Shown: positions 9,525 through 56,038 of the stretch, in pieces
Numbering within the stretch: the stretch's first letter is position 1
Layout: each line of letters starts with the position of its first letter
Origin: Vicinamibacteria bacterium
GTDB lineage: Bacteria > Acidobacteriota > Vicinamibacteria > Marinacidobacterales > Marinacidobacteraceae
NCBI GenBank assembly: GCA_963668695.2
Contig: CAXXLQ010000004.1
Coordinates: 256,001 to 320,000, forward strand
Length of the DNA stretch: 64,000 nucleotides
Direction of reading: 5' to 3'
Position numbers and translations under genes: made by a program
The notes under the pieces: model-generated
The model's input: the letters and a program-made list of their open reading frames with translations, nothing else
What the model was told of the DNA's origin: nothing
Database searches by the model: none

Positions 9525-9763
9525 AACCCATGCGGCCCAGTTCTCCCGGTGGGGGCTCGAGCGGCGATCCATTCCGGCTGAAACCCTCCGCTTCGCATCG
9601 TTCGTCGTTGCGCTTCGGTCGAAATACACTCGGGCCAGTTCTCCCGGTGGGGGCTCCTCCCTCGCGCGTCTTGTCAGCCGGGCCCCCACCGGGAGAACTG
9701 GCCCCACCGGGAGAACTGGGCCTCGCCGCTCTCGGCGCTCACCCGGGTTCCACCACGGGCTGT
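9511..9763. mobile_element. MITE-like family A element
   Basis: ACAGCCCGTG ... CACGGGCTGT ends; four copies of the 19-bp module. Confidence 0.8.
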
Positions 9764-9769
9764 TGACCG

Positions 9770-10897
9770 GTGAGCTTCCAGATCCTCCAAAGAAGCGGGG
9801 GAGCCCGGCTGGGACAGCTCCTCACCGCCCACGGCCCGGTTGATACGCCCACCTTCATGCCGGTTGCGACCGGAGGCGCGATCCGGGGGCTGACCAGCGC
9901 CGGAGTGATCGCTACGGGGACGCGCATCCTGCTAAGCAACGCTTGGCATCTGATGTTGCAGCCGGGAGACGAGAGGATCGCCACGCTCGGCGGCCTGCAC
10001 CGCCTGATGGCTTGGGACCGGCCGATCCTCACCGACAGCGGCGGCTACCAGGTGGCAAGCCTTGAGACCCTCCGCAAGGTTTCGGAGACCGGAGTGCATC
10101 TGCGCTCCTATCGGGACGGGTCGCCCCACGACCTGACTCCGGAGAGAGCCATCGAGATCCAGCGGAACCTCGGATCCGACATCGCGATGGTGCTTGACGA
10201 ATGCCTCTCCCTACCTGCCCCGCCGGAAGAGGTCGAACGAGCGGCGGCCCGCAGCCTCCGGTGGGCGGAGCGCTCGCTCGTCCCGCGTCGGCCCCCGGGC
10301 CAACTCCTTTTCGGGATCGTCCAGGGCGGGACGCTGGCGAACGTGAGGCGGGACAACGCCCGGGCCCTCGTGTCGCTCGGCCCCCCCGGGGAAGGATTCG
10401 ATGGATTCGGAATCGGCGGGCTGTTGATGGGGGAAGCGGGCGAAGACACCCGCCGGATGACGGCGCTTTCCGCCGAAGTGCTCGGAGAAGAGCGACCTCG
10501 GTACCTCATGGGGGCTGGACTCCCGGCGGACCTGATCGAATCCGCCGGGCTCGGTATGGATCTCTTCGACAGCGTGATTCCTACGCGGCTTGCTCGACGG
10601 GGCATCGTCTTCACTTCGACCGGCCGGCTGAACGTTTCGCGGGCTCCGTACCGGGACGATGTCGCTCCGCTCGATGAGGAGTGCGAGTGCCTGGCCTGCC
10701 GTGACTACTGCCGCGCCTGGCTGCACCACCTGCTTCGAGCCAAGGAGCGAATTGCCGCCACCCTGCTGAGCGCCCACAACCTCACGTTCTACGCGGGACT
10801 CATGGAACGGTTGCGCGAGGCGATCGCCGCGGACTGCTTCTTCGAGTTCCACGAAGAGAACCGCCACCGCTGGAGGTCTGCCGGCAGCCCTGGCTAG
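9770..10897 (+). CDS. tgt: tRNA-guanine(34) transglycosylase
   Basis: TPTFMPV, LTDSGGYQV, GIVQGG, RYLMG and the CECLAC...H zinc site; precedes yajC-secD-secF. Confidence 0.95.
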   Translation: MSFQILQRSGGARLGQLLTAHGPVDTPTFMPVATGGAIRGLTSAGVIATGTRILLSNAWHLMLQPGDERIATLGGLHRLMAWDRPILTDSGGYQVASLETLRKVSETGVHLRSYRDGSPHDLTPERAIEIQRNLGSDIAMVLDECLSLPAPPEEVERAAARSLRWAERSLVPRRPPGQLLFGIVQGGTLANVRRDNARALVSLGPPGEGFDGFGIGGLLMGEAGEDTRRMTALSAEVLGEERPRYLMGAGLPADLIESAGLGMDLFDSVIPTRLARRGIVFTSTGRLNVSRAPYRDDVAPLDEECECLACRDYCRAWLHHLLRAKERIAATLLSAHNLTFYAGLMERLREAIAADCFFEFHEENRHRWRSAGSPG

Positions 10898-11657
10898 GTG
10901 GAAAGAGGCTCGCCCCCTTTCACAAAAGATAACGACGCATCGCGACTCGCCGCCGCGCGCCGGAGGCGCGCAAGGGAGTTGCGATACGCGGCGCGAAGCG
11001 CCGGGCGGTTCCCGGATGGGCCCCGACGGGATCAGCACTCACAATCCAGACCAACCTCGATTCCACCGCCCCATCCTCAAAACGGCTCGACCCGAGACAA
11101 GGGCCGCGCTGAACCCTCCCAGAAAAAACTAACGGCAGCGAACTCTGTTCGCTGCCCGCGAGTTCGGGGGAAAGTGTGAAAGGGGGTCCACCCCCTTTCA
11201 CAAGAAAGTAACGACGCATCGCGACTTGCCGCCGCGCGCCGGAGGCGCGCAAGGGAGTTGCGATGCCCGGCGCGAAGCGCCGGGCGGTTCCCGGATGGGG
11301 CCTCGACCGAAACTGCGTTCACAGTCCGGACCAACCGCGCCGCGTGGCCCCGTCCGGAAACCGCTCGACATCGCTTGAGGGTGGCGGAGACCCGTCCGGG
11401 CGAAAACTGATGGCAGCGAACTCTGTTCGCTGCCCGCGAGTTCGGGGGAAAGTGTGAAAGGGGGCTCGCCCCCGTTCACAAAAAAGTAACGACGAATCGG
11501 AACTCGCCGAAGCGCGCGCCAAGCGCGCGAGGGAGTTGCGGTTCCCGGCGCGAAGCGCCGGGCGGATTCCGGGCGGGGCTCAACCGAAACTGCGTTCACG
11601 GTCCGGACCAACCATGCCGCGTGGCCCCGTCCGGAAACCGCTCGACGTCGCTCGACG
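10898..11657. repeat. Structured repeat family B, about 2.7 tandem units of ~280 bp
   Basis: Recurrent GGCAGCGAAC-tct-GTTCGCTGCC and GTGAAAGGGGG...CCCC(T/G)TTCAC hairpins; same family at 39372-40383. Confidence 0.85.
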
Positions 11658-11666
11658 TGGTATCCT
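11658..11666 (+). promoter_or_regulatory. Putative extended -10 promoter for yajC
   Basis: TGgTATCCT about 85 bp upstream of the yajC start, at the edge of repeat B. Confidence 0.35.
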
Positions 11667-11751
11667 GCCGCGCGGTTCGGTGCCCGGCCCGCTCTCCCTA
11701 GGGGGATGCGGGTTTTTTCACATCAGCGCATCATAGAAACGGATTCTGACC

Positions 11752-12054
11752 ATGCTCCCCACACTGCTCCAGGCGGACCCGGGCGGCAGCCCATTCGGCA
11801 TGCAGATCGTCCTGTTCGCCGTCATCTTCGGAATCTTCTACTTCATCGTCTTTCGTCCCATGCGCAAACGCCAACGGGAAACGGAACAGATGTTGCGGAG
11901 CCTCGAACGCGGCGCCCGGGTCGTCACCTCCGGCGGGATTCACGGGACCATCGCCGGAATCCAGGGCGACATCGTGCAGCTAAAGGTCACCGACTCGGTC
12001 AAGCTCCAGGTCTCGAAGAGCGCAGTCGCCGGCGTGGTCGAGAAGAAGCACTGA
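11752..12054 (+). CDS. yajC: Preprotein translocase subunit YajC
   Basis: FYFIVFRPMRKRQ and VVTSGGIHGTI; tgt-yajC-secDF synteny. Confidence 0.95.
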   Translation: MLPTLLQADPGGSPFGMQIVLFAVIFGIFYFIVFRPMRKRQRETEQMLRSLERGARVVTSGGIHGTIAGIQGDIVQLKVTDSVKLQVSKSAVAGVVEKKH

Positions 12055-12085
12055 TCGGCTCGGCGGCACTTCCACCAGCGAGAGA

Positions 12086-13624
12086 ATGGCCAGAAGTCTT
12101 CGCCTCAAAGGGGTTCTGCTCCTTCTGCTGGTCGCGGGGCTGGTATATGTGATCAACCCGCCCCGGGACAGGATCGTGCTGGGGCTGGATCTCCAGGGCG
12201 GCATCCATCTCGTCATGCGGGTGCATACCGAGGACGCGGTGCGGGTCCTGACCGACGAGACTGCCGAGCAGTTCGCGGAACGCCTCGACAACGAGGAGAT
12301 TGACTTCGCAGACGTAGAGACGGAGGGACTCGGACGGCTCACCATCCTGAATCTGGACGATTCCCGCCTCCGCGAGGTCCGGGACATTGTCGCCTTCAGT
12401 TGGCCGGGCTGGGATCTCCGCAGCGCCGGCGGCGGCGACTGGTCGTTCAGCCTGCGCCCCAGCGAAGAAATCGTGGTCCGCGAACAGACCGTGGCTCAGG
12501 CGATGGAGACCATCCGGCGGCGCGTCGACGAGTTGGGTGTCGCGGAACCGGTCATCACGACCCACGGGAACACCGGCGACCAGATCCTGGTGCAGTTGCC
12601 CGGCTACGAGGACGTCGCGCGGGCAAAGGAGATCATCCGGGCAACGGCCCAGCTGGAACTCCGGCTCGTGCAGGCGGGGCCGGCCCTCGACGAAGCGGCG
12701 CTGCCTCCGCTGAACAGCGCGCTGGAGAACATCCCGACGGAACTGCCGACCGGCGCTACCGGTTACTACCAGGTGAACCGGGTCGCCGCCATCACCGGCC
12801 GTGATCTCAGGAACGCCCGGCAGGCGATCGACTTCCAGACGAATACGCCCAATGTGGAGTTCAGCCTGCATGCCGAGGGAGCTTCCCGGTTCCGCGAGTT
12901 TACGGGCGCCAACGTGGGCCGTCAGATGGCGATCGTCCTCGATGACCTTGCTGTCTCGGCTCCCGTCATCCAGAGCCCGATCTACGACCAGGGCCAGATC
13001 ACCGGAAATTTCACGATCGATGAAGCGGTCGATCTCGCGCTCGTCCTGCGCGCCGGAGCGCTACCGGCATCCCTCGAGTACCAGGAGGAACGCACCGTAG
13101 GGCCCTCCCTCGGCGCGGACTCGATCCGGAGCGGCGTAACCGCGTCGCTGGTGGGTCTGGCCGGCGTCTTGCTGTTCATCCTCTTCTACTACCGGCTCTC
13201 CGGGGTGAACGCCGTCATCGCCCTCACCCTGAACCTCCTCATCCTGCTCGGGGCGATGGCCTACTTCGCAGCCACGCTGACGCTTCCCGGAATCGCCGGG
13301 GTCATCCTGACGATCGGTATGGGAGTGGACGCAAACGTCCTCATCTTCGAGCGGATCAAGGAGGAAATGCGGACCGGCAAGCCCCCGCGGACCGCGATCT
13401 CGGTCGGGTTCTCCCGCGTCTTCTGGACGATCGTGGACGCGAACATGACCAGCCTGGTGGCCGCTGCGATCCTCTTCCAGTTCGGCACCGGACCGGTCCA
13501 GGGATTCGCGGTGACCCTCAGCATCGGACTCATCAGCAACGTCTTCACCGCCGTGTTCGTTTCGCGCTACATCTTCGACCTGGTGCTCTCCGGACGGCGC
13601 CAGGTCCCGGCGCTCAGCATTTAG
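12086..13624 (+). CDS. secD: Protein translocase subunit SecD
   Basis: LGLDLQGG, LRAGALPA, TVGPSLG and GMGVDANVLIFERIKEE. Confidence 0.97.
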   Translation: MARSLRLKGVLLLLLVAGLVYVINPPRDRIVLGLDLQGGIHLVMRVHTEDAVRVLTDETAEQFAERLDNEEIDFADVETEGLGRLTILNLDDSRLREVRDIVAFSWPGWDLRSAGGGDWSFSLRPSEEIVVREQTVAQAMETIRRRVDELGVAEPVITTHGNTGDQILVQLPGYEDVARAKEIIRATAQLELRLVQAGPALDEAALPPLNSALENIPTELPTGATGYYQVNRVAAITGRDLRNARQAIDFQTNTPNVEFSLHAEGASRFREFTGANVGRQMAIVLDDLAVSAPVIQSPIYDQGQITGNFTIDEAVDLALVLRAGALPASLEYQEERTVGPSLGADSIRSGVTASLVGLAGVLLFILFYYRLSGVNAVIALTLNLLILLGAMAYFAATLTLPGIAGVILTIGMGVDANVLIFERIKEEMRTGKPPRTAISVGFSRVFWTIVDANMTSLVAAAILFQFGTGPVQGFAVTLSIGLISNVFTAVFVSRYIFDLVLSGRRQVPALSI

Positions 13625-13634
13625 CAACCCCCTG

Positions 13635-14639
13635 ATGGACATCGTCGGCGACACCCGGATCAACTGGATCAAGTATCGGTGGTGGTTCGCCGCAGTCTCC
13701 CTCGTAGTGGTTGCCGCGGGGGTTTTGGACATCATCCGGAAGGACGGGCTCCGGTACGGCATCGACTTCTCCGAAGGCACCCTGGTGGTAGCCAAGTTCG
13801 CCGTGTCTCCGGAAATCGATGCCGTACGGGAGACCGTCAGCGCGCTCGGGTACGGAAGCGCCGTGATCCAGAGCTACGACCGGCCCGAGATGAACCAGGT
13901 CATGATCCGGGTCGAAAAAGAGCCAACGGACGAGCCCATGGCGGGGCAGGATCCGGGCGACGCGGCGCAGCCGGCACCCGAGGCTGGAATCGACGAGACG
14001 GCCAACCGCATTCTCGAAGCGCTCCGCGCTGGAGCTGCGGGAGAACTGGTATCCGTGAGCACCGAGATCGTGGGGCCGGTGGTCGGCGAAGAACTCCGGC
14101 GGCGGGCGCGGAACGCCACCATCTTGGCGCTCTTCGCGATGCTCATCTACATCGGCTTCCGATTCGAGCCGGTGTACGGGGTCGGCGCCACCATCGCGGT
14201 CATCCACGACGTCCTCGTAACGCTGGCTCTCGTTTCCCTCTTCGACTACGAGATCAGTCTGAACGTGATCGCCGCTTTCATGACACTCGTGGGTTACTCG
14301 GTCAACGACACGATCGTCATCTTCGATCGGATCCGCGAAAACCGTCATATCCACCGCCGACTGAGGCTCCCGGAGATCGTGAACCTGGCAATTAACCAGA
14401 CACTCCGCCGCACCATCCTCACGTCAGGGCTCACCCTGCTCGCGGTAGGGGCGCTGTTCGTCTGGGGCGGCGAGGTGCTCCGTGCTTTCTCCTTCGTGCT
14501 GGTAGCCGGGGTCGTCGTGGGCACCTACTCCTCGATCGCCATCGCTTCGCCGATTGTCTTGTGGTGGCGCTCGGTACGGGGCGGCACGGCGGCAACCGCG
14601 GAACAGCAACGGCCCCAGGCGCCTCCGGTCAGGGTCTGA
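13635..14639 (+). CDS. secF: Protein translocase subunit SecF
   Basis: GIDFSEG, VGPVVG and GYSVNDTIVIFDRIREN. Confidence 0.97.
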   Translation: MDIVGDTRINWIKYRWWFAAVSLVVVAAGVLDIIRKDGLRYGIDFSEGTLVVAKFAVSPEIDAVRETVSALGYGSAVIQSYDRPEMNQVMIRVEKEPTDEPMAGQDPGDAAQPAPEAGIDETANRILEALRAGAAGELVSVSTEIVGPVVGEELRRRARNATILALFAMLIYIGFRFEPVYGVGATIAVIHDVLVTLALVSLFDYEISLNVIAAFMTLVGYSVNDTIVIFDRIRENRHIHRRLRLPEIVNLAINQTLRRTILTSGLTLLAVGALFVWGGEVLRAFSFVLVAGVVVGTYSSIAIASPIVLWWRSVRGGTAATAEQQRPQAPPVRV

Positions 14640-14660
14640 TTCTCCCGGCGCTCAAGCCGG

Positions 14661-14836
14661 GTTTCCGGAGCGGTGCTTGCGCCCCGCTCCGGAAACGACC
14701 GGCGATGCAGCCCGGCTGAACCGCCCCCCCCAACCGGAGAATTGGCGCTCCGCGCTGCGCTTCGGTCCAAATACACCAAGGCCAGTTCTGCCGGTGGGGG
14801 TTTCGGCGCTCACGCCACTCTATCCACAGGCCGCTA
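14661..14836. repeat. Partial family A element
   Basis: Shared internal modules and right end CCACAGGCCGC-TA; no clear left end. Confidence 0.65.
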
Positions 14837-14907
14837 GACTCGCGCAGCGAGGTTCTTGCCAGGTGCCGTCTGGACTTTCCAGAGGAAGAACACGGATTCT
14901 CCTTGGC

Positions 14908-15636: not shown

Positions 15637-15804
15637 ACCCGGCAGCCTCGCGGACCAACTGCGCAGCCCGGTTCTCCCGCCAAAAGGAGCTCGGTACTCG
15701 CTTGACTCCACCCACCGGGTGCCCGAGCAAACGAGCACGGCGCAGGTCGCCCGGCGAGTGAAACGCCAGCCCCCTGAGTGGTCCGTTACGGCATCTATTC
15801 TCTG

Positions 15805-15833
15805 TTGACATACCGGGGGCCGAGTGCTACTTT
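15805..15833 (+). promoter_or_regulatory. sigma70-type promoter for the tonB-exbB-exbD operon
   Basis: TTGACA, 17-bp spacer, TACTTT with an extended TG. Confidence 0.7.
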
Positions 15834-15955
15834 CTCCACCTTCCCCAGCAGCCTGGCAAGTCGCCTGCCGCTCTGTGCGGCCTCCGGAGATGGTGGCTCA
15901 CCGGGCTGTTCTCCGCTTCCGAGGACGGGCTGGATTCGGGGAGAAGGAGATCAAC

Positions 15956-18099: not shown

Positions 18100-18132
18100 C
18101 CCTCAACGGGTCAACACCCGGGAGAAAACATC

Positions 18133-18537: not shown

Positions 18538-18568
18538 CCGCTCGCGCAGCCAGAGGAGATCACACGCC

Positions 18569-19812: not shown

Positions 19813-20033
19813 TAGCAGCCTGTGAACAAAGTCATATGGCCCAGTTCTCCCGGTGGGGGCTCGAGTGGCGATGCATCCCGGCTGGTACCCACCTCGAGAA
19901 CTGGCCGCCCCGCTCCGCGTTGCTCATCGTTGCGCTGCGGTCGAAATACACCGGGTATTTCTCCCTCGCGCGCCTTGTCAGCCGGGCGCCTTACCACTCT
20001 CGGCACTAACGCCACTTTGTCCACCGGCTGCTA
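19813..20033. mobile_element. MITE-like family A element
   Basis: TA-GCAGCCTGTGAACAAAG ... CTTTGTCCACCGGCTGC-TA. Confidence 0.8.
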
Positions 20034-29026: not shown

Positions 29027-29334
29027 ACAGCCGGTGGTGGAACCCAGGCGGCGTTCGAGCGGCGATGCATCCCGGCCAGACAGCCGGTAGTGAAACCCAC
29101 GCGGCCCAGTTCTCCCGGTGGGGGCTCGGCCGGCGATCCATCCCGGCTGAACCGCGTCGCTGCGCGCCGCTCATCGTTGCGTTTCGGTCGGAATACACCC
29201 GGGCCAGTTCTCCCGGTGGGGGCTCCTCCCTCACGCGCCTTGTCAGCCGGGCCCCCACCGGGAGGACTGGCCCCACCGGGAGAACTGGGCCTCGCCGCTC
29301 TCGGCGCTCACCCGGGTTCCACCACCGGCTGTTA
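29027..29334. mobile_element. MITE-like family A element
   Basis: ACAGCCGGTGGTGG ... CCACCACCGGCTGT-TA; absent from the paralogous site at 26381-26400. Confidence 0.88.
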
Positions 29335-32627: not shown

Positions 32628-32848
32628 AAGTAGCCTATGGGCAAAGTCGCTTGAGCGCAGAGAGCGGTGAGGCGGCCGGCTGACAAGGCGCGCGAGGGAG
32701 GAGCCCCCACCGGGAGAACTGGCCCGAGTGTATTTCGACCGAAGCGCAACGATGAGCGAAGCGCAGCGCCAGTTCTCCCGGTGGGGGGGCGGTTCAGCCG
32801 GGATGCATCGCCGCTTGAACGCCGCGTGACTTTGTCCATAGGCTGCTA
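32628..32848. mobile_element. MITE-like family A element between korA and korB
   Basis: GTAGCCTATGGGCAAAGTC ... GACTTTGTCCATAGGCTGC-TA; right end overlaps the korA stop. Confidence 0.8.
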
Positions 32849-43863: not shown

Positions 43864-44301
43864 TAACAGCCTGTGGCGAAACCCACGCGGCGTTCAACCG
43901 GCGATCCATCCCGGCCAAACAGCCTGTGATGAAACCCGCGCGGCGTTCAACCGGCGATCCATCCCGGCCAAACAGCCTGTGATGAAACCCGCGCGGCGTT
44001 CGGCCGGCGATCCATCCCGGCTGACCGCGTCGCTGCGCGCCGCTCATCGTTGCGTTTCGGTCGAAATACACCAGGTATTCCTCCCTCACGCGCCTTGTCA
44101 GCCAGGCGCCTCACCGGCCTCGGCGCTCACCCGGGTTCCACCACAGGCTGTTCACCACTCCGCTTCGCTGCGTTCTGCGTTGCGTTTCGGTCGAAATACA
44201 CCCGGGCCAGTTCTCCCGGTGGGGGCTCCTCCCTCACGCGCCTTGTCAGCCGGGCGCCTCACCGGCCTCGGCGCTCACGCGGGTTCCACCACAGGCTGCT
44301 A
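43864..44301. mobile_element. Composite MITE-like family A element
   Basis: TA-ACAGCCTGTGG ... CCACAGGCTGC-TA with internal ~52-bp tandem reiterations. Confidence 0.82.
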
Positions 44302-44789: not shown

Positions 44790-45301
44790 TAACAGCCTGT
44801 GGTGAAACCCACGTGAGCGCCGAGACCGGTGAGGCGCCCGGCTGACAAGGCGCGTGAGGGAGGAATACCGGGTGTATTTCGACCGAAACGCAACGATGAG
44901 CGGCGCGAAGCGACGCGGTTCAGCCGGGATGGATCGCCGGTCGAACGCCGTGTGGGTTTTGCCACAGGCTGTTAACAGCCTGTGGTGAAACCCAAGCGGC
45001 GTTCCCGAGCCAGAAGCGACGGGGATCGGGTGCTCCCGCCCCCCGTCCCTTCCGCTCCGGGGTCTACGCGGTGCTTGCGCCCCGCTCCGGAAACGAGCGG
45101 CGATCCATCCCGGCTGAATCACTCCGCTTCGCTCCGTTCTGCGTTGCGTTTCGGTCGAAATACACTCGGGCCAGTTCTCCCGGTGGGGGCTCCTCCCTCA
45201 CGCGCCTTGTCAGCCGGACCCCCACCGGGAGAACTGGGCCTCGCCCCCACCGGGAGGACTGACCGCTCTCGGCGCTCACCCGGGTCCACCACAGGTTGTT
45301 A
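44790..45301. mobile_element. Two abutting family A elements sharing one TA at 44973-44974
   Basis: GGCTGT-TA-ACAGCC junction; outer ends are TA-flanked. Confidence 0.85.
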
Positions 45302-46468
45302 AAGATCCCCGACGCCCGCAAGGACCTTTCGGCTGAATGGCTGCGTGCCGCTCTCGTCGCGGGAGGCCGTCCGGACTGTCCGCCGATCCGGGAGCTGACC
45401 TGCGAGACCATCGGGGAAGGGATCGGACTGATCGGAGAAATCCTGCGCTGCGAACTGACCTTCGTCGAGGGCACCCGACCTTCCGACAGCGTGATCGTGA
45501 AACTCCCCAGCAGAAAACGCACGAACCGGAAACTCGGCCGCAGGTGGAGGCTGTACCGCCGCGAGTACAGCTTCTACCGCCACCTGGCGTCCGAACTACC
45601 GCTCCGCACCCCGGCGCTCCTCTACGGTGATTTCGAAGCTCGAAGCCACCGTTTCGTCCTCGTTCTCGAGGATCTCCGCGGCATGGCCCCAGCGGACCAG
45701 GTCGAGGGCGCGAACCCTCGACAGGTGAGGCGCGCCGTGCGGGCGGCGGCCCAACTCCACGCAAAATACTGGGACCGGGTCGAACCTCTGGCCGCCTCGG
45801 GTCTTGATGAGACGATGGCTCCGGGGGTCTGGCTGGGCGTGCAGATCCTGTATCTGTTGAGCCTGCCGCGGAGTCTGCCGCGCCTCTCGGCTTGGTGGTC
45901 CGAAGAGGTGCAGGATCTGGCGGAGGAGTACGGACTTCGGCTGGCAGACCACCTCGCTCACCTGGCTGGAGAACCGCTGACATTCGTTCATGGCGACTAC
46001 CGCCTCGACAACATGTTCTTCGGGGAAGACGGCAAGGACGACTTCGCGGTGGTGGACTGGCAAAACAGCGGGGTCTCGAGCGGCCTCTACGACGTGGCCT
46101 ACTTCCTCGCGGGCAGCGTCTCGACGGAGGTCCGCCGCGCGGTCGAAAAAGACGCGCTCCGGGAGTATCACGACATCGTTTGCAGTCTGGGCACGCGGGA
46201 CTTCACGTTCGAGCACTGCTGGCGGCTCTACCGCGAGACCCTGCTGGGCTGCCTGGTGTTGCCGGTGGTTGCCGCCGGCCAACTGCTGGAAGAGCCCCCG
46301 GAACGGCAACTGCGACTCGAGGACGCGATCGCGAAGCGGACCGCGGCAGCGGTCCAGGATCGAGATGCCGGCGCGTTCCTGCCCCCTCTCCCGCCACTGC
46401 TGAGCCGGGCAGGGCTCCGGCGCGCTCTCTGCCGGGGCGGTTACCGGGTCTATCGGGCGCTCCCCTAG
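45296..46468 (+). CDS. APH/choline-kinase-like phosphotransferase (EcKinase/DUF1679-like)
   Basis: VIVK, LVLEDL, HGDYRLDN and VVDWQ; start overlaps the repeat end. Confidence 0.85.
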   Translation: MLKIPDARKDLSAEWLRAALVAGGRPDCPPIRELTCETIGEGIGLIGEILRCELTFVEGTRPSDSVIVKLPSRKRTNRKLGRRWRLYRREYSFYRHLASELPLRTPALLYGDFEARSHRFVLVLEDLRGMAPADQVEGANPRQVRRAVRAAAQLHAKYWDRVEPLAASGLDETMAPGVWLGVQILYLLSLPRSLPRLSAWWSEEVQDLAEEYGLRLADHLAHLAGEPLTFVHGDYRLDNMFFGEDGKDDFAVVDWQNSGVSSGLYDVAYFLAGSVSTEVRRAVEKDALREYHDIVCSLGTRDFTFEHCWRLYRETLLGCLVLPVVAAGQLLEEPPERQLRLEDAIAKRTAAAVQDRDAGAFLPPLPPLLSRAGLRRALCRGGYRVYRALP

Positions 46469-46723
46469 CAGCCTGTGGATAAAGTGGCGTGAGCGCCGAG
46501 AGCGGCCAGTTCTCCCGGTGGGGGCGAGGCCCAGTTCTCCCGGTGGGGGTCCGGCTGACAAGGCGCGTGAGGGAGGAGCCCCCACCGGGAGAACTGGCCC
46601 GGGTGTATTCCGACCGAAACGCAACGATGAGCGACGCGAAGCGACGCGGTTCAGCCGGGATGCATCGCCGCTCGAGCCCCCACCGGGAGAACTGGGCCGC
46701 GTGACTTTGTCCACAGGCTGCTA
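46466..46723. mobile_element. MITE-like family A element
   Basis: TAG-CAGCCTGTGGATAAAG ... CTTTGTCCACAGGCTGC-TA. Confidence 0.85.
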
Positions 46724-46751: not shown

Positions 46752-48137
46752 ATGCCGCAAACCGAAGAAGGGCGGTTCACCACCGGCTCGACGATGCGCC
46801 ACGTGGTCGTCATGACCACGACCGCCTCCGTCGGGTTCATGTTCCTGTTCCTGGTGGACTTCCTTGCGCTGTTCTACATCTCGCTGCTCCGCGACGTACG
46901 TCTCGTAGCCGCCGTCGGACTCGCCTCCTTCGTCCAGCACGTCGTCAGTGCCGTGGCCATCGGCCTCGCCGTCGCCGCGACCGCGCTCGTCAGCCAGGCG
47001 CTGGGCGCGCGCAACCGGTCGCTGGCGCGCAGCCGGACCACCTCGTGCCTGACCGCTTCTTTCGTGACCCTCACCGTCATCGCCGGCGCGGTGTTCGTCT
47101 TTCGCCAGGAGGCCGTCGGCCTGCTCATCGAAGCCGGGCCGGTCACGGAGGTGGCCAGCCGCTACCTGGCGTGGATCCTTCCGTCGCTGCCACTACTGGG
47201 TATTGGAATAAGCACCGCGGCGATTCTCAGAGCCGAGGGCGACGCCCGGCGGGCCCTGATCGTCACGATGGTCGCCGGCGGGGTGGCGTTCGTGCTGGAT
47301 CCGCTGGTGATCCTGGGGCTGGGACTCGGGGTGGACGGCGCGGCCTGGGTGGTGATTCTCGCCAGGCTCGTCACCGCGCTGGTGGGACTCCACTTCTTGA
47401 TCGGTGTCCATGGCCTGGCCGCTCCGCTCCGGGTAGCCGGAGTGTCACGCGACCTCCGTGCGATCTTCGCGGTGGGCGGACCGGCGGTGCTGGCCCAACT
47501 GTCGACACCTTCCGGCTTCCTGTTGCTGACCGCCTGGGTCGGGCGCTTCGGAGAAAGCGCCGTCGCGGGCTGGTCCGTGGTGACGCGACTGGTCGTGCTC
47601 GGGTTCTCCGGCATCATCGCACTGTCGGTAGCGGTGGGAGGCATCTTCGGCCAGAACTACGGCGCCCGAAAGCTGGAGCGGGTAGTGGCCACCTTTCGGG
47701 ACAGCCTGGTCTTCGGTGTCCTCTACGCGCTGGCGGCGTGGGCGGTGCTTTGGATCGGGACCGACGCCGTCGTCTGGGCGTTCGGGATGTCCGGCGAGGG
47801 CGCCAGGATCGTCCGGGCCTTCTGCCGGATCGGGGCCGGCGGGTTCGTCCTCGCGGGGGCGGCCTACGTGGCGACGGCGGCCTTCAACAATCTGGGCCGT
47901 CCGCTCTGGGCCACGATGCTCAACTGGTCGAGGGCCGGGCTGGCGATTCCTGCCATGCTGCTGCTAGCGGTGGGCACGCTGGAAGGCAGGGTGATCCTGT
48001 TCGCGCTCGACGGCCCCGGCGTGGTCTACGCCCAGGCCCTCGGGAGCAGTCTGGTCGGGGTGATCGGCGCCGGGGTGGGATGGCGCTTCGTGAAGGCCGT
48101 GGCGAGAGAGCGTCTGTCGGCGGGTTCGGATCCCTAG
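46752..48137 (+). CDS. MATE family efflux transporter
   Basis: About 12 TM segments; LRAEGDARR, LDPLVI and GQNYGA. Confidence 0.9.
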   Translation: MPQTEEGRFTTGSTMRHVVVMTTTASVGFMFLFLVDFLALFYISLLRDVRLVAAVGLASFVQHVVSAVAIGLAVAATALVSQALGARNRSLARSRTTSCLTASFVTLTVIAGAVFVFRQEAVGLLIEAGPVTEVASRYLAWILPSLPLLGIGISTAAILRAEGDARRALIVTMVAGGVAFVLDPLVILGLGLGVDGAAWVVILARLVTALVGLHFLIGVHGLAAPLRVAGVSRDLRAIFAVGGPAVLAQLSTPSGFLLLTAWVGRFGESAVAGWSVVTRLVVLGFSGIIALSVAVGGIFGQNYGARKLERVVATFRDSLVFGVLYALAAWAVLWIGTDAVVWAFGMSGEGARIVRAFCRIGAGGFVLAGAAYVATAAFNNLGRPLWATMLNWSRAGLAIPAMLLLAVGTLEGRVILFALDGPGVVYAQALGSSLVGVIGAGVGWRFVKAVARERLSAGSDP

Positions 48138-48603
48138 CAGCCGGTGGTGGGACCCGGGTCAGCGCCGAGCCCGGCCAGTCCTCCCGGTGGGGGCGAGGCC
48201 CAGTTCTCCCGGTGGGGGTCCGGCTGACAAGGCGCGTGAGGGAGGAGCCCCCACCGGGAGAACTGGCCCGGGTGTACTCCGACCGAAACGCAACGATGAG
48301 CGGCGCGCAGCGACGCGGTTCAGCCGGGATGGATCGCCGGCCGAGCCCCCACCGGGAGAACTGGGCCGCGTGGGTTTCACTACCGGTTGTTTCGCCGGGA
48401 TGGATCGCCGGGCGAGCCCCCACCGGGAGAACTGGGCCGCGCGAGTTTCATTACAGGCTGTTTCGCCGGGATGGATCGCCGGGCGAGCCCCCACCGGGAG
48501 AACTGGGCCGCGCGAGTTTCATTACAGGCTGTTTCGCCGGGATGGATCGCCGGGCGAGCCCCCACCGGGAGAACTGGGCCGCGTGGGTTCCACCACCGGC
48601 TGC
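48135..48603. mobile_element. Composite MITE-like family A element
   Basis: TAG-CAGCCGGTGGTGG ... CCACCACCGGCTGC with internal ~71-bp tandem units. Confidence 0.85.
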
Positions 48604-48614
48604 CGGCAGCCCCC

Positions 48615-51236
48615 TCAGGCCGGAACCAGCTCGGCTCTGTCCGCCACCCCGCGCGGAGCGACCTCAATCGTTCCGCCGGCATCGCTCCGCACCTCGACCA
48701 AGGCTCCGGGCGGAAGCACCCCGCCAACGATCATCCGCGCGACCGGTGTCTCGACCCGGTGCTGGATGACCCGCCGAACGGGACGGGCGCCATAGAGCGG
48801 GTCGTACCCCTCGGCGGCAAGGACTCTGAGGGCGTCCTCGGTCACCTCGAGCGTGAGGTCTTGCTCGCGGACCCGTTCACGGAGCCGGTCCAGCTGGAGG
48901 TTCACGATTTCGGTCACCTGGTCCCGGGTGAGGCTCCGGAACACGACGGTTTCGTCCACCCGGTTCAGGAACTCGGGCGGGAACTCGCGCCGAAGCTCCG
49001 AAATCACTTCGCGCTTCATCTCGTCATATCCGCGTCCCGCCTCGGCAAGCGCCAGCACCCGCTCACTCCCGACGTTCGACGTCATGATGAGTACCGTGTT
49101 GCGGAAGTTGACCAGCCGGCCGTGCGAGTCGGTGAGCCGGCCGTCGTCGAGCACCTGAAGCAGCACGGTCCGCACCTGTGGGTGGGCCTTTTCGATTTCA
49201 TCCAGCAGGACAACCGCGAACGGCCGGCGGCGCACCGCCTCCGTCAACTGGCCACCCTCTTCGAAGCCGACATATCCGGGGGGCGCCCCGGTCAGCCGGG
49301 ACACCGAGTGCTTCTCGGTGTACTCGGACATGTCCAGGCGCACCACGGCGTGCTCGTCATCGAAGAGTTCGGCGGCGAGCGCGCGGGCGAGTTCGGTCTT
49401 TCCCACCCCGGTGGGGCCGGCGAACAGGAAGGCGCCGAGCGGCCGATCCGGATCCTGGACGCCGGCGCGAGCGCGGACCACCGCGTCGGCCACCGCCCGT
49501 ACCCCTTCGTCCTGTCCGATGACCCGGCGGTGGAGCAGGTCTCCCAGCCGCAGCAGTTTTTCCCGCTCGCCTTCGAGCAGCCGGTCCACCGGGATACCCG
49601 TCGACCGCGCAACCACCGAGGCTACGTCGGAGGCGTCCACCTCCTCACGAAGGAGACGACCGTCCTGCCCACCGAGCCGCGTCTCCGCGGCCGTCAGTTC
49701 GCGTTTCAGTTCCTCGATGGTCCCGTACCGGAGTTCGGCCGCCCGGCCGAGGTCCTGCTCGCGTTCAGCCCGCTCCATCTGGAGGTTCGCCTCTTCGATC
49801 CGCTCGCGAAGCCTCCGCACCCCAAGGAGCTGCGCTTTCTCGCCCTGCCACTGGGTGCGGAGGGCTCGCGCCTCCTCTTCGAGGTCGGCGATCCGCCGTT
49901 CGAGTTCCGTGAGTCGCTTGCGCGAAGCGTCGTCCTTTTCCTTCTTCAGCGCCTCACGCTCGATCTGAAGCGACAGGAGCCTCCGCTCCACCTCGTCGAG
50001 ACTGGTGGGAACACTGTCCATCTCGGTCCGCAGGCGGGCGCCCGCCTCGTCCACCAGATCGATGGCCTTGTCGGGCAGGAAGCGGCCGGAGATGTAACGG
50101 CTGGACATGGACGCCGCGGCCAGGAGCGCGCCGTCCTGGATCCGGACGCCGTGGTGGACCTCGTAGCGCTCCTTGAGGCCGCGCAGGATGGTCACGGTGT
50201 CCGGGACGGAGGGCTCATCAACCACCACGGTCTGGAACCGCCGTTCGAGCGCGGCATCCTTTTCGATGTACTGGCGGTATTCGTCCAGGGTGGTCGCCCC
50301 GATGCAGTGCAGGTCCCCCCGGGCGAGCGCCGGCTTCAGCAGGTTGGAGGCATCCATCGCGCCGTCGGTTCGGCCGGCGCCGACGACGGTATGCAACTCG
50401 TCGACGAAGAGAATGACCCTTCCGTCCGACTCCTGCACGGCGCCAAGCACCGCCCTGAGCCGCTCTTCGAACTCGCCCCGGAACTTCGCACCGGCGATGA
50501 GCGCCCCCATATCGAGCGCCACGACCTGCCGGTCGCGGAGCCCTTCGGGTACGTCACCCTTCACGATCCGGAGCGCCAGCCCCTCCGCGATGGCCGTCTT
50601 GCCGACTCCCGGTTCCCCGAGCAGCACCGGGTTGTTCTTGGTACGCCGAGACAGGATCTGCATGACCCGCCGGATCTCATCGTCACGACCGATGACCGGG
50701 TCCAGTTTGTCGGCACGGGCGAGGGACGTCAGGTCCCGCCCGTATTTCTGGAGTGGCTCGTAGGCGCTCTCGGGGTTGGGGCTTGAGGCGCGTGCGGGAC
50801 CGCGCACCGCCTTGATCGCTCCTTCGAGCCTCTTCCGGTCCACTCCGACGGCGCGGAGAGCATGGCTGGCCGCCGACTTCTGCAAGACCAGAGCGAGGAG
50901 GAGATGTTCCACGCTCAGGAACTCGTCCCCGAGCCTTCGCGCCTCCTCCGACGCGGTGTGAATCACCTTGGCGAGCCCCTGGGATGCGGAAGGCGAGCCC
51001 TCGGCTGCGTAGTGCTGCACCGGCAGCGCACCAAGGGCCGTGTCCAGGTTGCGACCCAGAGCGGAGGGTTCGACGTCCAGCCGGCGAAGGAGCCGGAGAG
51101 CAAGCCCATCGGGCGCATCGTCGAGCAAGGCGGCGAGCAGGTGCTCGGGAGTGGTTTCCGGGTTTGGGCGCCCTCCTGCGAGGCTTGCAGCCCGCGACAG
51201 TGCAGCGCCAGCACGTTCGGTAGCGGAAAGAGACAT
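48615..51236 (-). CDS. clpB: ATP-dependent chaperone ClpB
   Basis: Clp-N repeats, GEPGVGKT, coiled-coil M domain and GPTGVGKT. Confidence 0.96.
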
Positions 51237-51399
51237 GATCTATCTACTCCATACTCATTAAATCTGATGTGTAGTATAGCCGATTCTCCTGACAAAGCAC
51301 ACAGAACCGAGGGAACAAGGACCGGCGGGCTCGCCCCGGCGCGCCGGCTCCGCTCGCTGGGGCACTCCAGCCGGGTGGCGGGGGCTAACGGCCAGGCGC

Positions 51400-51854
51400 T
51401 AACAGCCGGTGGTGGAACCCGCGTGAGCGCCGAGGCCGGCGAGGCCCAGTTCTCCCGGTGGGGGTCCGGCTGACAAGGCGCGTGAGGAAGGAATACCGGG
51501 TGTATTTCGACCGAAACGCAACGATGAGCGGCACGCAGCGACGCGGTCAACAGCCGGTGGTGGAACCCGCGTGAGCGCCGAGGCCGGCGAGGCCCAGTTC
51601 TCCCGGTGGGGGTCCGGCTGACAAGGCGCGTGAGGGAGGAATACCGAGTGTATTTCGACCGAAACGCAACGCTGAGCGACGCGAAGCGACGCGGTTCAGC
51701 CGGGATGGATCGCCGGTCGAACGCCGCGCGAGTTTCATTACAGGCTGTTTCGCCGGGATGGATCGCCGGCCGAACGCCGCGCGGGTTTCATTACAGGCTG
51801 TTTCGCCGGGATGGATCGCCGGCCGAACGCCGCCTAGGTTTCACAACCGGCTGT
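51400..51854. mobile_element. Composite MITE-like family A element
   Basis: TA-ACAGCCGGTGGTGG start duplicated at about 51550; ~52-bp reiterations; end ACCGGCTGT. Confidence 0.82.
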
Positions 51855-52064
51855 TTCGGGACCCTCGCGTCCGGACGCACCGACGAAACCAGAACAGGTC
51901 AGGACCGGCAGGCGCGGGTAGCGGGGATAGCGCGCGTCCGAGAACGAACGCTCGCAAAGGGTGAAACGGGTGCGGCGCGACGCCACGATCCGGGCGTGGC
52001 AGCAGGTCTCGCAGAGCCCGGCGAGATGGCCCGCAGACACGACCGGTTCGCGCGGCTGGCTCAT
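51834..52064 (-). CDS. Small cysteine-rich hypothetical protein
   Basis: GLCETCCHAR...LCERS...YPRYPRLPVLTC; GGGAAGGGG RBS-like sequence; directly downstream of kbl. Confidence 0.65.
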   Translation of the reverse strand: MSQPREPVVSAGHLAGLCETCCHARIVASRRTRFTLCERSFSDARYPRYPRLPVLTCSGFVGASGREGPETAGCET

Positions 52065-52086
52065 CCCCCCTTCCCGACGCAGCCGC

Positions 52087-53277
52087 TCAGATGATGCCGC
52101 GGGCCCGGCCGCATTCCGCAAACGCGGCGACCGCCCGGTCCACCTGCTCGTCGTCATGGGCGGCAGACAACTGCACCCGGATCCGGGCCTTTCCGCGCGC
52201 GACCACGGGAAAGCTGAACCCGATGACGTAGATCCCGCGTTCGAGCAGATCGTCCGCCATGCCGCTCGCGAGACGGGCGTCGCCGAGCATGACGGGGACG
52301 ATGGGGTGCTCGCCCGCCGGAATTGTGAACCCGGCGGCCGTCATGGCTTCGCGAAACCGCCGGGTGTTCCGACGGAGCCGCTGTCTGGGCTCTTCGGTGG
52401 CCGAAAGGAGCGAAACGACCTCGATCGCAGCCGAGACGATGGCCGGGGCCAGGGTGTTCGAGAAGAGATAGGGGCGGCTCCGCTGGCGGAGCAGCGCGAC
52501 GATCTCGCCGCGTCCCGACGTGAACCCGCCAGCAGCTCCGCCGAGGGCCTTCCCGAGCGTGGAGGTGATGATGTCCACCCGCTCGGAGACCCCGAACCGC
52601 TCCGGCGTTCCGCGCCCGGTTTCTCCGATGAAGCCGGTGGCGTGCGAGTCGTCCACCATGACGAGCGCCTGGTGACGGTCGGCGAGGTCGCAGATCGCAT
52701 CGAGCGGCGCCAGGGTTCCGTCCATGCTGAAGACCCCGTCGGTCGCGATCAGTTTGCGCCGCGCGCCGGAGCACTCATCGAGTTTGGCGGCGAGGTCGTC
52801 CATGTCGCGGTTCCGGTAGCGGAAGCGCTGGGCCCGGCAAAGGCGCACGCCGTCGATGATGCTGGCGTGGTTCAGTTCGTCGCTGAGGATGGCGTCATCG
52901 GGACCGAGAATGGTCTCGAAGAGGCCACCGTTCGCATCAAAGCACGAGCTGTAGAGGATGGTGTCCTCGGTGCCCAGAAACTCGGCAATCCGCCGCTCCA
53001 ACTCGCGGTGAATGTCCTGGGTGCCGCAGATGAAGCGGACCGAGCTGAGCCCGAACCCGCGCTCGTCGAGCCCCCGGCGGGCGGCGGCGAGCACCCGCGG
53101 ATCGTTCCCGAGACCGAGGTAGTTGTTGGCGCAGAAGTTGAGGACTTCACGTCCCCCGACCCGGATCAGGGCTCCCTGAGGGGAGGCGATCAGGCGTTCC
53201 CGTTTCTCCAGACCCGCGTCCTGGATCGCGGTCACCTCGCCGCGGATGGAAGAAAGGACTTCAGCGTTCATGGGCAT
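52087..53277 (-). CDS. kbl: Glycine C-acetyltransferase (2-amino-3-ketobutyrate CoA ligase)
   Basis: [35 protein letters not shown] and [11 protein letters not shown]. Confidence 0.96.
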
Positions 53278-53334
53278 GATTCCTCGGGGGCGAGACTCTA
53301 TCCGGTGGCAGGCGGCGTCAGGGAGGGCGACGCG

Positions 53335-53445
53335 CCGACCAGGGACCGCCGGCCAGGGACGGCGGCGCATCGGCCAGGGACCGCCGGCCAGTTCTCCCGG
53401 TGGGGGAGTCCAGACCGGCATCGCGGCCCGCCGGGCCGCGAAACT
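53335..53445. repeat. REP-like GC palindrome cluster carrying one 19-bp module (empty paralog of the IS110 target)
   Basis: Reverse strand reads GATGCCGGTCTGGACTCCCCCACCGGGAGAACTGGCCGGCGGTCCC. Confidence 0.65.
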
Positions 53446-54035
53446 CAGGTCGCAGTAGCAGGACTGGCGGGACGCCAACATGTCGCACTAGCCGGTTCCG
53501 CCGGATATACATGTCGCACTAGCGGGATCGGCGGGACGCCAACATGTCGCACTAGCCGGATCTGCCGGGCGAACATGTCGCACTAGCGGGATCGGCGGAA
53601 CGCGAACATGTCGCACTAGCCGGATCTGCCGGGCGAACATGTCGCACTAGCGGGATCGGCGGGACGCCAACATGTCGCACTAGCCGGTTCCGCCGGATGT
53701 ACATGTCGCACTAGCGGGATCGGCGGGACGCCAACATGTCGCACTAGCCGGTTCCGCCGGATGTACATGTCGCACTAGCGGGATCGGCGGGACGCCAACA
53801 TGTCGCACTAGCCGGTTCCGCCGGGCGAACATGTCGGCCTAGCAGGACCGGCAGGACGCCAACATGTCGCACTAGCCGGATCTGCCGCGCGAACATGTCG
53901 CAATAGCAGGGTCGGCGGAACGCGAACATGTCGCACTAGCCGGATCTGCCGCGCGAACATGTCGCACTACCGGGATCAGCGGGACGCCAACATGTCGCAG
54001 TAGCCGGATCTGCCGGGCGAACATGTCGCTCTAGC
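53446..54035. repeat. Tandem array: 18 copies (plus 1 degenerate) of ACATGTCGCACTAGC with alternating 16- and 18-bp linkers
   Basis: Cores run from 53478 to 54021 at alternating 31/33-bp spacing (64-bp dimer). Confidence 0.95.
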
Positions 54036-54087
54036 GATTCGACAAACCCTGATTCGAAATCTCGGGGGGCTCCGGTAGGCTGTCGCC

Positions 54088-54663
54088 GTGGCCGACGACG
54101 GGAGACAGCGGGCAGAGCTGCGGGGCGCGATCCGGGAAGAGGGATTCCGTCTCGGGTTCTCCGCGGTCGGATTCGCCCCACCTCGGATGCCCGAAGCCGG
54201 CCGGCAGTTCGAAAAGTGGCTGGACGATGGGAACCACGGGACCATGCACTGGATGGCCACGGATCCCGGCCGGCGGAGCGACGCCACGAGGACACGGGTT
54301 CGCGACGGGAACGATTCGGCCGCATTGCCAGAGCGGACCGTCGTGGCCTGCGGACTCAACTACTACCAGGGGGGTCCGGCCTCCGCGCCCTCCGGCGGCG
54401 GGGTGGTTTCCCAATACGCTCAAGGCGAGGACTACCACCGGGTGCTGGATTCGAAGCTCCGCGCCCTTGCGGCGTTCGCCCAAGCCCGCGCCATCAAAGC
54501 CGGCCTGCTGCCCGAGCGCTCGCCGGGCGCGCGCCGGCGCATCCCGACCCTCGTGGATCACGGACCGCTGCTTGAGAAGGCGTTCGCGGAACGGGCTGGC
54601 CTGGGATGGATCGGCAAGCACTCGAACGTGATCGCCACCCGGGGCAGCTCGTGGTTCTTCCTC
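54088..54663 (+). pseudogene. queG: Truncated epoxyqueuosine reductase (N-terminal part only)
   Basis: GNHGTMHWM, YAQGEDYH, LEKAFAERAGLGWIGK and SSWFFL, after which homology is lost; no 4Fe-4S CxxCxxC motifs follow. Confidence 0.8.
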
Positions 54664-54867
54664 CGGCGGACGGGTGCGCCCCTACGGGAAGCCGCCCGGT
54701 CGGACCAAGCCCATCACCGCTGCGCGTTTCGCGGCCCTGCGGGCCGCGATGCCGACCGGAGGTCGGCGGTCCCCTCACTCCCCGCGCTTGCCGCCGTTCA
54801 GCACTCCGCCTTTCACCAGCCTTCGGCTGGCAGTGCCGGTCTTCAGGCCCCCTATAGGATCACGGGC

Positions 54868-55053
54868 GTTGTGTAGGAGGCGGTTTCGCCTCCTACTTCA
54901 TCAACTTCGGTTGGCCGATCCGCCGGGAGTACCAAGAGGCCCCGGTGCCGCAAGCACCTGTGGTGGACCAGTACCCCGACGGATGGCCGTGATGGGACAC
55001 CCTGTGGAGAGTTGTGCCGATCGAGCACCAATATAGGGCTTGACTGCCATCGC
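54868..55053 (+). ncRNA. Putative IS110 bridge RNA (5' stem-loop, target-binding loop, donor-binding loop)
   Basis: Hairpin 54873-54896; stem 54913-54932/54971-54988 enclosing AGAGGCCCC and GGTGG around GGTGC/GCACC; stem 54989-54995/55047-55053 enclosing GGAGAGT and TATAGGG around GTGC/GCAC. Confidence 0.8.
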
Positions 55054-55071
55054 GGCAAGGCGGACCGCTCG

Positions 55072-55769
55072 ACACCGGCGACGGCGCGGAAGGTGCGGTG
55101 CTCCACCTGGGAGAAGCTGCTGCGGCACTACGGGGTGACCCGGATCAGCGCGGACCGGGTGGTTGCGTTGTTTCGTGAGGAGGCGCTGACGGTGGCGCCC
55201 GGGGCCACCGCCGCGGCGGTGGAGACGATTCGGACGGCGTTGGCCCTGCTGGAGGTTGTGAACGCGGAGATCGCGCGTGCGGAGAAGCAGATGACGCAGT
55301 TCCTGGATGCGCTGTCGGAGACGGAAGCGGTGGGAGGCGGCGCGGGCGCGACGGCTCCGGATCCGGTCACCATCCTGCGGTCTCGGAAGGGGTTGGGAGA
55401 CAAGGCGCTGGCGCGGCTGTTCGCCTGGGGATTCGAGGCGGTGTGCGCCGGGGACCACGGCCGGTTGCGAGCGGCCTCCGGGGCGGCCCCCCCGTCCGGG
55501 TGCAGTCCGGAGAGCGCGACACGGCCCGGATGCGGCGTGCGGTGCCCTACTCGCTGCAGCAGGCCGCCTACCTCCTGGCACGCGGGGTGTTGCGCTGGGA
55601 CGAGGACGTGAAGGCATACAGCCGGAAGCTGAAGGACGCGGGGAAGACGACGGCCCGGCGGCATCGCGCCATCGCCGACCAGCAGTTCCGGGTGTTATGC
55701 GCGATGGCGCGACACCGCACCTTCTTCGACCCGAACTTCGCCGCCAGGAGCCCAAAATCCGCCGCCTGA
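55072..55769 (+). pseudogene. IS110 recombinase remnant: C-terminal half, frameshifted, RuvC-like DEDD domain missing
   Basis: TILRSRKGLG..., GAAP/VRVQSG (frameshift in the C7 run 55487-55493) and RAIADQQFRVLCAMARHRTFFDP. Confidence 0.85.
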
Positions 55770-55771
55770 CT

Positions 55772-55956
55772 TAACAGCCTGTGGCGAAACCCACGCGGCG
55801 TTCAACCGGCGATCCATCCCGGCTGAACCACTCCGCTTCGCTGCGTTCTGCGTTGCGTTTCGGTCGAAATACACCCGGTATTCCTCCCTCACGCGCCTTG
55901 TCAGCCGGGCGCCTCACCGGCCTCGGCGCTCACGCGGGTTCCACCACAGGCTGTTA
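55772..55956. mobile_element. Minimal 185-bp family A element inserted in the IS110 right end
   Basis: TA-ACAGCCTGTGG ... CCACAGGCTGT-TA; lacks the 19-bp module. Confidence 0.88.
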
Positions 55957-56038
55957 ACCCTCCCTTCCTCCTTGCATTCTCCAGGAGAGTCCACCGGGAG
56001 AACTGGCCGGCGGTCCCTGCCGGACGGATCCTCGGCGC

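Follow-up and report, generated by a model that had tools for sequence, protein, structure and literature searches.

How does a sequence of only 19 bp come to lie in near-identical copies at several positions of other repeats, in a stretch of DNA that also holds the same positions empty? The question is raised by 64,000 nucleotides of the Vicinamibacteria bacterium assembly GCA_963668695.2 (contig CAXXLQ010000004.1, positions 256,001 to 320,000 of the forward strand), herein called the window, in which an initial annotation had pointed out such a micro-module. The 19-mer is herein named M, the source genome G000 and its relatives G001-G018; the window is part of a 3.91-Mb contig (C4, the chromosome) of an assembly of 4.10 Mb with 67.5% G+C. 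On balance, we lean towards the view that M is a very small non-autonomous insertion module, which would enter new sites as a block, then spread among the paralogues of its host repeats, and then serve as a recombination joint.

Abundance, location and conservation of M

The initial annotation described about 30 copies of M, all non-coding and in both orientations. At up to three mismatches, 33 matches were found in the window (24 of them exact, and 5, 1, and 3 with one, two, and three mismatches, respectively), compared with a chance level of 0.08 in 100 shuffles, none of which reached 33. The genome-wide count that had been proposed as a check gave 1,655 copies at the same threshold (1,123, 403, 87, and 42 with zero to three mismatches, respectively), and the density in G000 is approximately one copy per 2.5 kb. 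Both orientations were seen in the window and throughout the genome. Strand use was balanced in every 200-kb bin of the G000 chromosome, and replichore polarity of M was rejected on this ground; the listing for G018 showed an apparent strand polarity.

The non-coding character of M was largely upheld, in that 1,478 of 1,613 genome copies fell outside an open reading frame (ORF) call that is crude, GC3-based, and covers 67% of G000. Most of the 130 copies scored as intra-ORF lay within the first few hundred nucleotides of over-extended ORFs and only 8 lay deep in an ORF; a single locus, outside the window and present in two haplotype contigs, proved truly coding.

Across 1,612 copies, positions 1-18 of M were invariant at 98-100%, with the exception of position 13 (A 89%, G 11%). 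Position 0 was C in 87% and G in 12% of the copies, the preceding base was G in 88%, and conservation dropped sharply within 1-3 nt of either border. The unit is thus as discrete as had been claimed, but its size of ~19 bp needs amendment: what is inserted is usually G plus the 19-mer, and the net gain is 18 nt at most sites and 19 nt at two (site P4 and the R hairpins described below).

M alone folds weakly (-1.4 kcal/mol, z = 0.41; 129 of 200 shuffles folded as well or better). Inverted pairs of M, of which 144 have a spacing of 48 nt and 60 a spacing of 55 nt, fold strongly (z = -6.2); many direct arrangements also occur, and tandem pairs have an 18-nt period. The sequences between copies belong to a few recurring families, such as those of 52 nt (109 cases) and 79 nt (84 cases), rather than being unique spacers, and a CRISPR array was rejected for this reason. 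As had been noted, M is far smaller than a miniature inverted-repeat transposable element (MITE) and has no inverted ends. Nor was a target duplication found at the coding sites or at the ATA/G-M-C sites, so that M was rejected as a MITE, unlike its main host, which has both inverted ends and a TA duplication. A further candidate rule, that M replaces the loop of a palindrome, was also rejected: complementary flanks of at least 4 bp were present in 2% of the copies and 5% of the context classes, compared with 5-11% in controls. An Rfam search of the window at gathering thresholds gave no match. Elsewhere in the genome, other high-copy short repeats unrelated to M were seen (14-mer counts of 96-142), together with a CRISPR-like repeat with a count of 46.

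M occupies fixed sites in two host repeat families

The two host repeats that had been called unrelated turned out to be modules or arms of one composite palindromic MITE, 179 nt long when free of M; the unrelated host is a separate REP-like (repetitive extragenic palindrome) hairpin family, R, with compensatory stem variants. Copies of the MITE without M fold as a single long imperfect hairpin (ΔG -54 to -59 kcal/mol as single-stranded DNA). Within the MITE, M holds five fixed sites (P1-P5), each with two sharply defined states. P1 carries M or a tandem pair when filled and one base when empty; P2, G-M-C (299) or ATA (280); P3, G-M (248) or AC (193); P4, M-C or one base; and P5, M-G (rare) or AC, where the P2 and P3 counts refer to both strands of the chromosome only. 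The junctions quoted in the initial annotation are correct, namely cacgcggc-gt-tcaacc at 55792 versus cacgcggc-(M)c-tcggcc at 29098 for P3, and acccgg-tat-tcctcc at 55873 versus acccgg-g(M)c-tcctcc at 44200 for P2, and so is its picture of a discrete unit inserted in other repeats, with filled and empty versions at each site. Nearly every combination of P4, P1, P2, and P3 states is present among 623 composites; about half of the copies are filled per site, with one site rarely so.

When filled sites were defined by insert length only, the minor-allele frequency within M was 0.00-0.01 per position, compared with an average of 0.13-0.22 over the adjoining 20-32 nt of host, and the common host variants were about equally frequent whether the copy was filled or empty. 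M thus varies far less than its hosts and is unlinked from variants a few bases away. Within M itself, the A13G form is frequent at P1 and hardly ever seen at P2 and P3. At about 12 distinct host sites, the inserted block has the same borders to within 1-2 nt. In other genera, M is partly found in other contexts, including a sixth MITE site and other hairpins.

The R family shows the same two states. In G000, about 50-118 R hairpins are filled and about 87 empty, a filled share of roughly 36-58%; in G010, the share does not exceed 4% (no more than 13 filled and about 347 empty). The occurrence of M in a REP-like hairpin had been noted for the copy at 53388, which indeed lies in such a GC-rich repeat. 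The R family, as exemplified by window positions 53360-53430, also has a variable hairpin upstream.

With regard to the mobility of the MITE, the copy at window 46468-46721 has a TA next to either end, and the corresponding empty target in G008 contains TA only once (CTCCCC-TA-ACAGCC). An IS630-family (DDE_3) insertion sequence (IS) element with 11-bp inverted ends lies, TA-flanked, directly between two MITEs at C4:~667045-668195, outside the window. Because a core within the MITE ends is very similar to the inverted ends of this element, it or a relative is, judging from the sequence, the likely mobilizer of the host MITE.

Examination of truncated copies of M for clues to direction brought up a separate repeat of approximately 190 nt (25 copies, e.g., at C4:327508, 383614, and 605106), which starts with the first 15 nt of M, occupies the same junction type in R hairpins, and has an ill-defined right border. 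M could be a minimal derivative of this repeat, or both could share a recognized end.

The filled state of M sites is derived

At up to one mismatch, M was found in 21 of 41 related genomes, belonging to five genera of the family, with 1 to 1,526 copies per genome, and the same 19-mer recurs across these genera though the hosts differ. All 15 other genomes of the genus contain it (7 to 740 copies, compared with 1,526 in G000), and none of 16 genomes from two sister families does at this threshold. In a scan of a species collection, the matches listed were Acidobacteriota/Vicinamibacteria metagenome-assembled genome (MAG) records, bar two single-copy exceptions; exact M was not found in viral contigs.

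Counts of the a-module, the ATA form, and M were 104, 97, and 13 in G010; 55, 52, and 10 in G007; 34, 35, and 7 in G012; and 21, 21, and 14 in G015. The corresponding values were 642, 301, and 1,526 in G000; 299, 154, and 710 in G001; 434, 228, and 740 in G004; and 391, 271, and 665 in G008. Genomes low in M thus have the MITE almost solely in the ATA (empty) form, and the share of filled MITE sites is about half in G000 and at most 7% in G010. Since the assemblies of G010, G009, and G014 consist of 1-2 contigs, their low numbers of M do not result from collapsed repeats.

Two conserved genes show the same direction of change. Outside the window, at contig position 394433, an exact, in-frame M lies in a gene for a resistance-nodulation-division (RND, AcrB-like) transporter. 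Both haplotypes of G000 carry it, as does G001, whereas the remaining 22 of 24 aligned genomes of the family do not. Two target bases were replaced by G-M at this site, with a net gain of 18 nt, i.e., 6 codons. The target is a 10-bp palindrome, although a palindrome-target rule fails in general. In a second gene, an exact in-frame M (+18) is present in G012 and a decayed 12-nt remnant lies at the same point in G010; no insert is seen in seven of nine genomes, one of which, G007, shares 91% identity with G012 over this stretch. Collectively, the filled state is derived and M is a block insertion, not an ancestral segment that has since been deleted; empty is the ancestral condition at the site sampled best and in the two genes, which disposes of the ancestral origin that the initial annotation had named as a possible refutation.

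In-place differences of M among haplotypes and species

Contigs C1 (144.5 kb) and C3 (31.2 kb) are not plasmids but alternative haplotypes of chromosome segments, 97.6-99.7% identical to their counterparts at C4:304184-421223 and C4:3505137-3538141; the first of these overlaps window positions 48184-64000. The two haplotypes, which probably explain the 9.3% 'contamination' figure of the assembly, also differ from the chromosome by kb-scale insertions and deletions. With respect to M, they differ by ATA versus G-M-C at two neighboring sites, with flanks identical for at least ~35 nt to the left and right; by two 18-nt indels of M, each at a P1 site; by a 211-nt M-bounded segment in one haplotype only; and by 71-nt repeats of M plus a unit, 4 versus 1. 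A haplotype-specific insertion of ~1.15 kb, bounded by another G/C-run hairpin repeat, was also seen (C1:119730-121948 versus C4:326894-327958). Tandem arrays of a 52-nt MITE unit without M, at window 43890-44060 and 51700-51860, vary in unit number between haplotypes, indicating that tandem growth is independent of M.

Between species, the composite at 9510-9764 contains the tandem pair of M reported in the initial annotation (9683-9719, with a 1-nt overlap and an 18-nt period); G001 lacks this pair and has an extra M at another site, and G004 has one M compared with two in G000. At 29046-29314, the four-M composite of G000 corresponds to an all-empty composite in the opposite orientation in G004, and it seems that replacement or inversion of the palindromic element took place at this locus. 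For the composite at 32704, G004 has ATA at P2, with identical flanks around it, and no M at P5, and the element is absent from G001. In G000, the locus at 48137-48603 is a 467-nt array with seven M, whereas G001 has a short T-M-stub there and G008 a bare T-T' hairpin of 52 nt; the last four M of the array are 71 nt apart, each interval being M plus the 52-nt unit c (e.g., 48365-48416). M thus differs in place between haplotypes and between species, its states are independent of nearby host variants, and M-to-M rearrangements occur. In this way M remodels intergenic DNA, supplying perfect 19-bp inverted repeats and recombination joints, and the loci of sister species diverge.

How M may be inserted and spread

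Three steps make up the insertion-module reading. First, and rarely, M would be written as a block into a new site, with 1-4 target bases overwritten and 18 (sometimes 19) bases gained without target duplication; block insertion is shown by the two genes and by about 12 host sites whose borders coincide within 1-2 nt. Second, and commonly, an M at one site of a multi-copy host would spread to the same site in paralogues by short-tract homologous copying, MITE transposition, and tandem amplification. Homologous copying between paralogues fits the data, because M alleles are site-specific (A13G at P1) and junction states are exactly reproduced, and much of the filled/empty pattern can come from such copying rather than from fresh insertion. 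Third, identical copies of M would act as 19-bp recombination joints, at which the intervening modules are shuffled, deleted, and multiplied into mosaic arrays. We infer copy-and-paste in preference to cut-and-paste movement, and likewise the conversion step and a trans-acting factor; given that occupancy rose jointly in two unrelated host families, the data suggest an M-specific activity acting in trans.

Several points weigh against this reading. Only two insertion events in unique DNA were found, and both coding sites, as we read their sequences, loosely resemble a known host site, so that homology-assisted copying may have operated even there. The initial annotation had advised a search for co-occurring enzymes; G000 has no RVT_1 (reverse transcriptase) match, no REP-associated tyrosine transposase (RAYT), and no TnpB above the cut-off, and among its long multi-copy repeats there was no multi-copy IS with M at its ends. 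The search did return a single-copy IS110-family transposase gene (428 aa; C4:482336-483619, outside the window), which lies beside M-bearing R hairpins and has an upstream non-coding stretch resembling the middle of M. Furthermore, the site-specific variants of M imply that most copies descend from copies at the same site, and ordinary gene conversion could explain these variants without M-specific machinery. Finally, short-read MAGs may under-assemble repeats, although G010, G009, and G014, with 1-2 contigs each, are low in M all the same.

As to what would carry out the first step, we put forward only tentatively that M is moved by a new sequence-specific 'copy and patch' activity, which would write a block of 18-20 nt over a few target bases and would act without reverse transcriptase, RAYT, or TnpB. 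If true, M would be the smallest mobile unit of DNA on record and would provide a tractable entry to how very short dispersed repeats move.

Repair alone is a doubtful explanation of the whole, yet it has much to commend it. On this account, hairpin repeats break or stall replication and are patched from another repeat by microhomology-mediated template switching or short-tract conversion, with a bias for the longer allele raising the occupancy of M. The hosts are long hairpins, the sets of inner modules differ at one locus among G000, G001, and G008, indicating heavy copying between elements, and the module junctions recur without deviation as either ATA or G-M-C; the site-specific alleles, the loose likeness of both coding targets to host sites in our reading, and the lack of a candidate enzyme (reverse transcriptase, RAYT, or TnpB) in G000 fit as well. 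Repair has more difficulty in explaining why block borders are equal within 1-2 nt at about 12 host sites with the donor flank never carried along, why G000 contains no donor with longer homology to the RND site, why occupancy rose together in two unrelated host families, and why the 19-mer is identical in five genera despite differing hosts.

Selection or drive on a recognition site, in which chance copies of a DNA uptake signal or of a nucleoid- or RNA-binding-protein site are favored, is improbable. In the case of an uptake signal, DNA fragments with M would be preferred in uptake and recombination. Conservation of the 19-mer in 21 of 41 related genomes and five genera, the frequent inverted pairs (144 at 48 nt) that fold strongly, the two orientations, and the density of M would all suit such a site, and strain-level filled/empty differences would be a substrate for biased uptake. 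ComEC and DprA genes are present; however, the same searches were positive in 10 and 11 of 14 control genomes, respectively, so that their presence says little. M is almost excluded from genes and was seen only as block indels, the copy within the G010 gene has decayed, and M has no strand polarity along the chromosome.

That M is a REP element moved by a RAYT (an IS200-like tyrosine transposase), as in systems of REP doublets forming hairpins (REPINs), is very improbable. Inverted pairs of M recall REPIN doublets, and of the 15 other genomes in the genus, 13 have RAYT-like genes with HUH and Y motifs. Against this, M alone does not fold, no Y1_Tnp match was obtained in G000, the genome richest in M, or in G004, and tblastn of the G008 protein against G000 gave a best E value of 2.3. 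No exact or near-exact M lay within 3-4 kb of the RAYT-like genes of G008, G010, and G001; one copy with one mismatch lies downstream of the RAYT-like gene of G014. The RAYT explanation is therefore largely refuted for G000, and R rather than M may be the RAYT partner.

An adapter, primer, or assembly artifact, of which constant short repeats can in principle be a sign and for which nothing was found in favor, has next to no probability, given that M is in 21 of 41 independently assembled relatives and many named MAG records, at fixed sites of structured repeats and in frame in genes, that contigs from three DNA runs, belonging to three studies, agree with the unique flanks (0-7 differing letters in each piece listed, none for run X5), and that words in the repeats are ~400-3,600 times as deep as those in the flanks in these runs; the artifact that the initial annotation had allowed for can thus be set aside. 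Public short-read contigs break inside the M-bearing repeats. Contigs of an RNA run (X17) also cover the repeats, which may reflect carry-over of DNA and points to no particular copy of origin.

Copies of M in the window

The features of the window that carry M, or that represent the empty state, are collected in Table 1.

Table 1. Copies of M and related repeats, in window coordinates (M< and M>, orientation of M within an element).
Feature	Position	Strand	Details
Degenerate M, 3 mismatches, in decayed MITE arm	8653..8671	-	Orthologous copy in G001 and G004; element absent in G008
Composite MITE	9510..9764		M at 9537-9555(-), 9635-9653(-), 9683-9701(+), 9701-9719(+)
Decayed composite, two M-like copies	14727..14800		14727(+), 3 mismatches; 14782(-), 1 mismatch
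M at b2/T' junction (P3), composite otherwise empty	19841..19859	-	
Composite	29106..29288		M at 29106(-), 29204(-), 29252(+), 29270(+)
Composite	32704..32787		M at P2 (32704, +) and P5 (32769, -)
M at P2 of composite	44207..44225	-	Tandem M-less units upstream at ~43890-44060
Composite	45171..45262		M at 45171(-), 45219(+), 45244(+, 2 mismatches)
Complete TA-flanked MITE	46468..46721		TA at 46466-67 and 46722-23
Same MITE, left part	46468..46549		T arm 46468-46505; M< 46506-46524; cgaggc 46525-46530; M< 46531-46549
Same MITE, middle	46550..46676		Module a 46550-46578; M> 46579-46597; module b 46598-46676
Same MITE, right part	46677..46721		M> 46677-46695; T' arm 46696-46721
Enlarged composite, ~467 nt, 7 M	48137..48603		M< 48175, 48200; M> 48248, 48346, 48417, 48488, 48559
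Two composite units	51446..51612	-	One M each at P1 (51446, 51594); P2 and P3 empty in both; absent in G001
M in REP-like hairpin family R	53388..53406	-	GC-rich hairpin, unrelated to MITE
All-empty MITE reference copy	55774..55953		gt at 55800-01 (P3 position); tat at 55879-81 (P2 position)
M-like copy, 3 mismatches at 5' end, R-type context	55988..56006	+	

Comparison with known systems

To our knowledge, how very short dispersed repeats multiply has been an open question since REPs were found. M offers clean material in this respect: a constant 19-mer, hundreds of filled and empty copies of the same sites in one genome, relatives with 7 to 1,526 copies, two in-frame insertions with clear empty alleles, and haplotype differences within one assembly. 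Rates and direction of gain and loss can be measured, and the responsible factor can be sought by comparative genomics. The M motif was not found by text search in the papers covered, and titles and the opening parts of abstracts on this taxon and repeats held nothing relevant. The initial annotation did not recognize M as a described element; elements of a similar kind, the small dispersed repeats discussed below, are known.

DNA uptake signals (DUS/USS) are 9-12 nt long, arise by substitution, and are common inside genes. M is likewise a short exact motif across a family, with at least 1,000 copies and frequent inverted pairs, but it is longer, near-absent from genes, and arises as a block, all differences seen being block indels. 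It was rejected as a member of this class on account of its one truly coding locus and of block indels in place of substitutions. In the Neisseria intergenic mosaic elements, RS units are flanked by the 20-bp dRS3, which has inverted ends and is a phage attachment site. As with M, the arrays are built from several unit families of 50-150 bp, delimited by a constant unit of ~20 bp that acts as a recombination joint, whereas neither inverted ends nor a phage-attachment role was seen for M. The palindromic elements of Rickettsia (100-150 bp) lie in frame in conserved protein genes, and M shares this in-frame entry, although it adds only 6 codons.

The REPs and bacterial interspersed mosaic elements (BIMEs) of enterobacteria are high-copy and extragenic, in both orientations, and in mosaic clusters with few linker motifs (PMC3116915; for REPIN-RAYT, PMC3733652). 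M is similar, being high-copy, extragenic, in both orientations, and arranged in mosaic clusters, tandem arrays, and inverted doublets at fixed spacing. It differs in being non-palindromic, without a GTAG or CGTC head, in being inserted in repeats instead of forming the hairpin, and in the lack of a cognate RAYT in the M-richest genome.

The closest known analogue of M is the group of small dispersed repeats (SDR4-6) of Nostocaceae cyanobacteria. These are said to have units of 21-27 nt, nested inside other repeats, and reportedly number in the hundreds in certain genomes, with few in close relatives and with varying presence or absence at orthologous positions. We know of no protein encoded by SDRs and of no mechanism for their movement. 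M resembles them in its range of 7 to 1,526 copies within one genus, in its nesting in other repeats, and in its variable presence at orthologous sites. SDR-like repeats are reported not to have been found outside the Nostocaceae among the HIP1-rich cyanobacteria examined in one study (PMC5861425). M differs from SDRs in belonging to the Acidobacteriota (Vicinamibacteria), in its length of 18-20 nt rather than 21-27 nt, and probably in its sequence; furthermore, in-frame insertions into genes and strain-level differences are documented for M.

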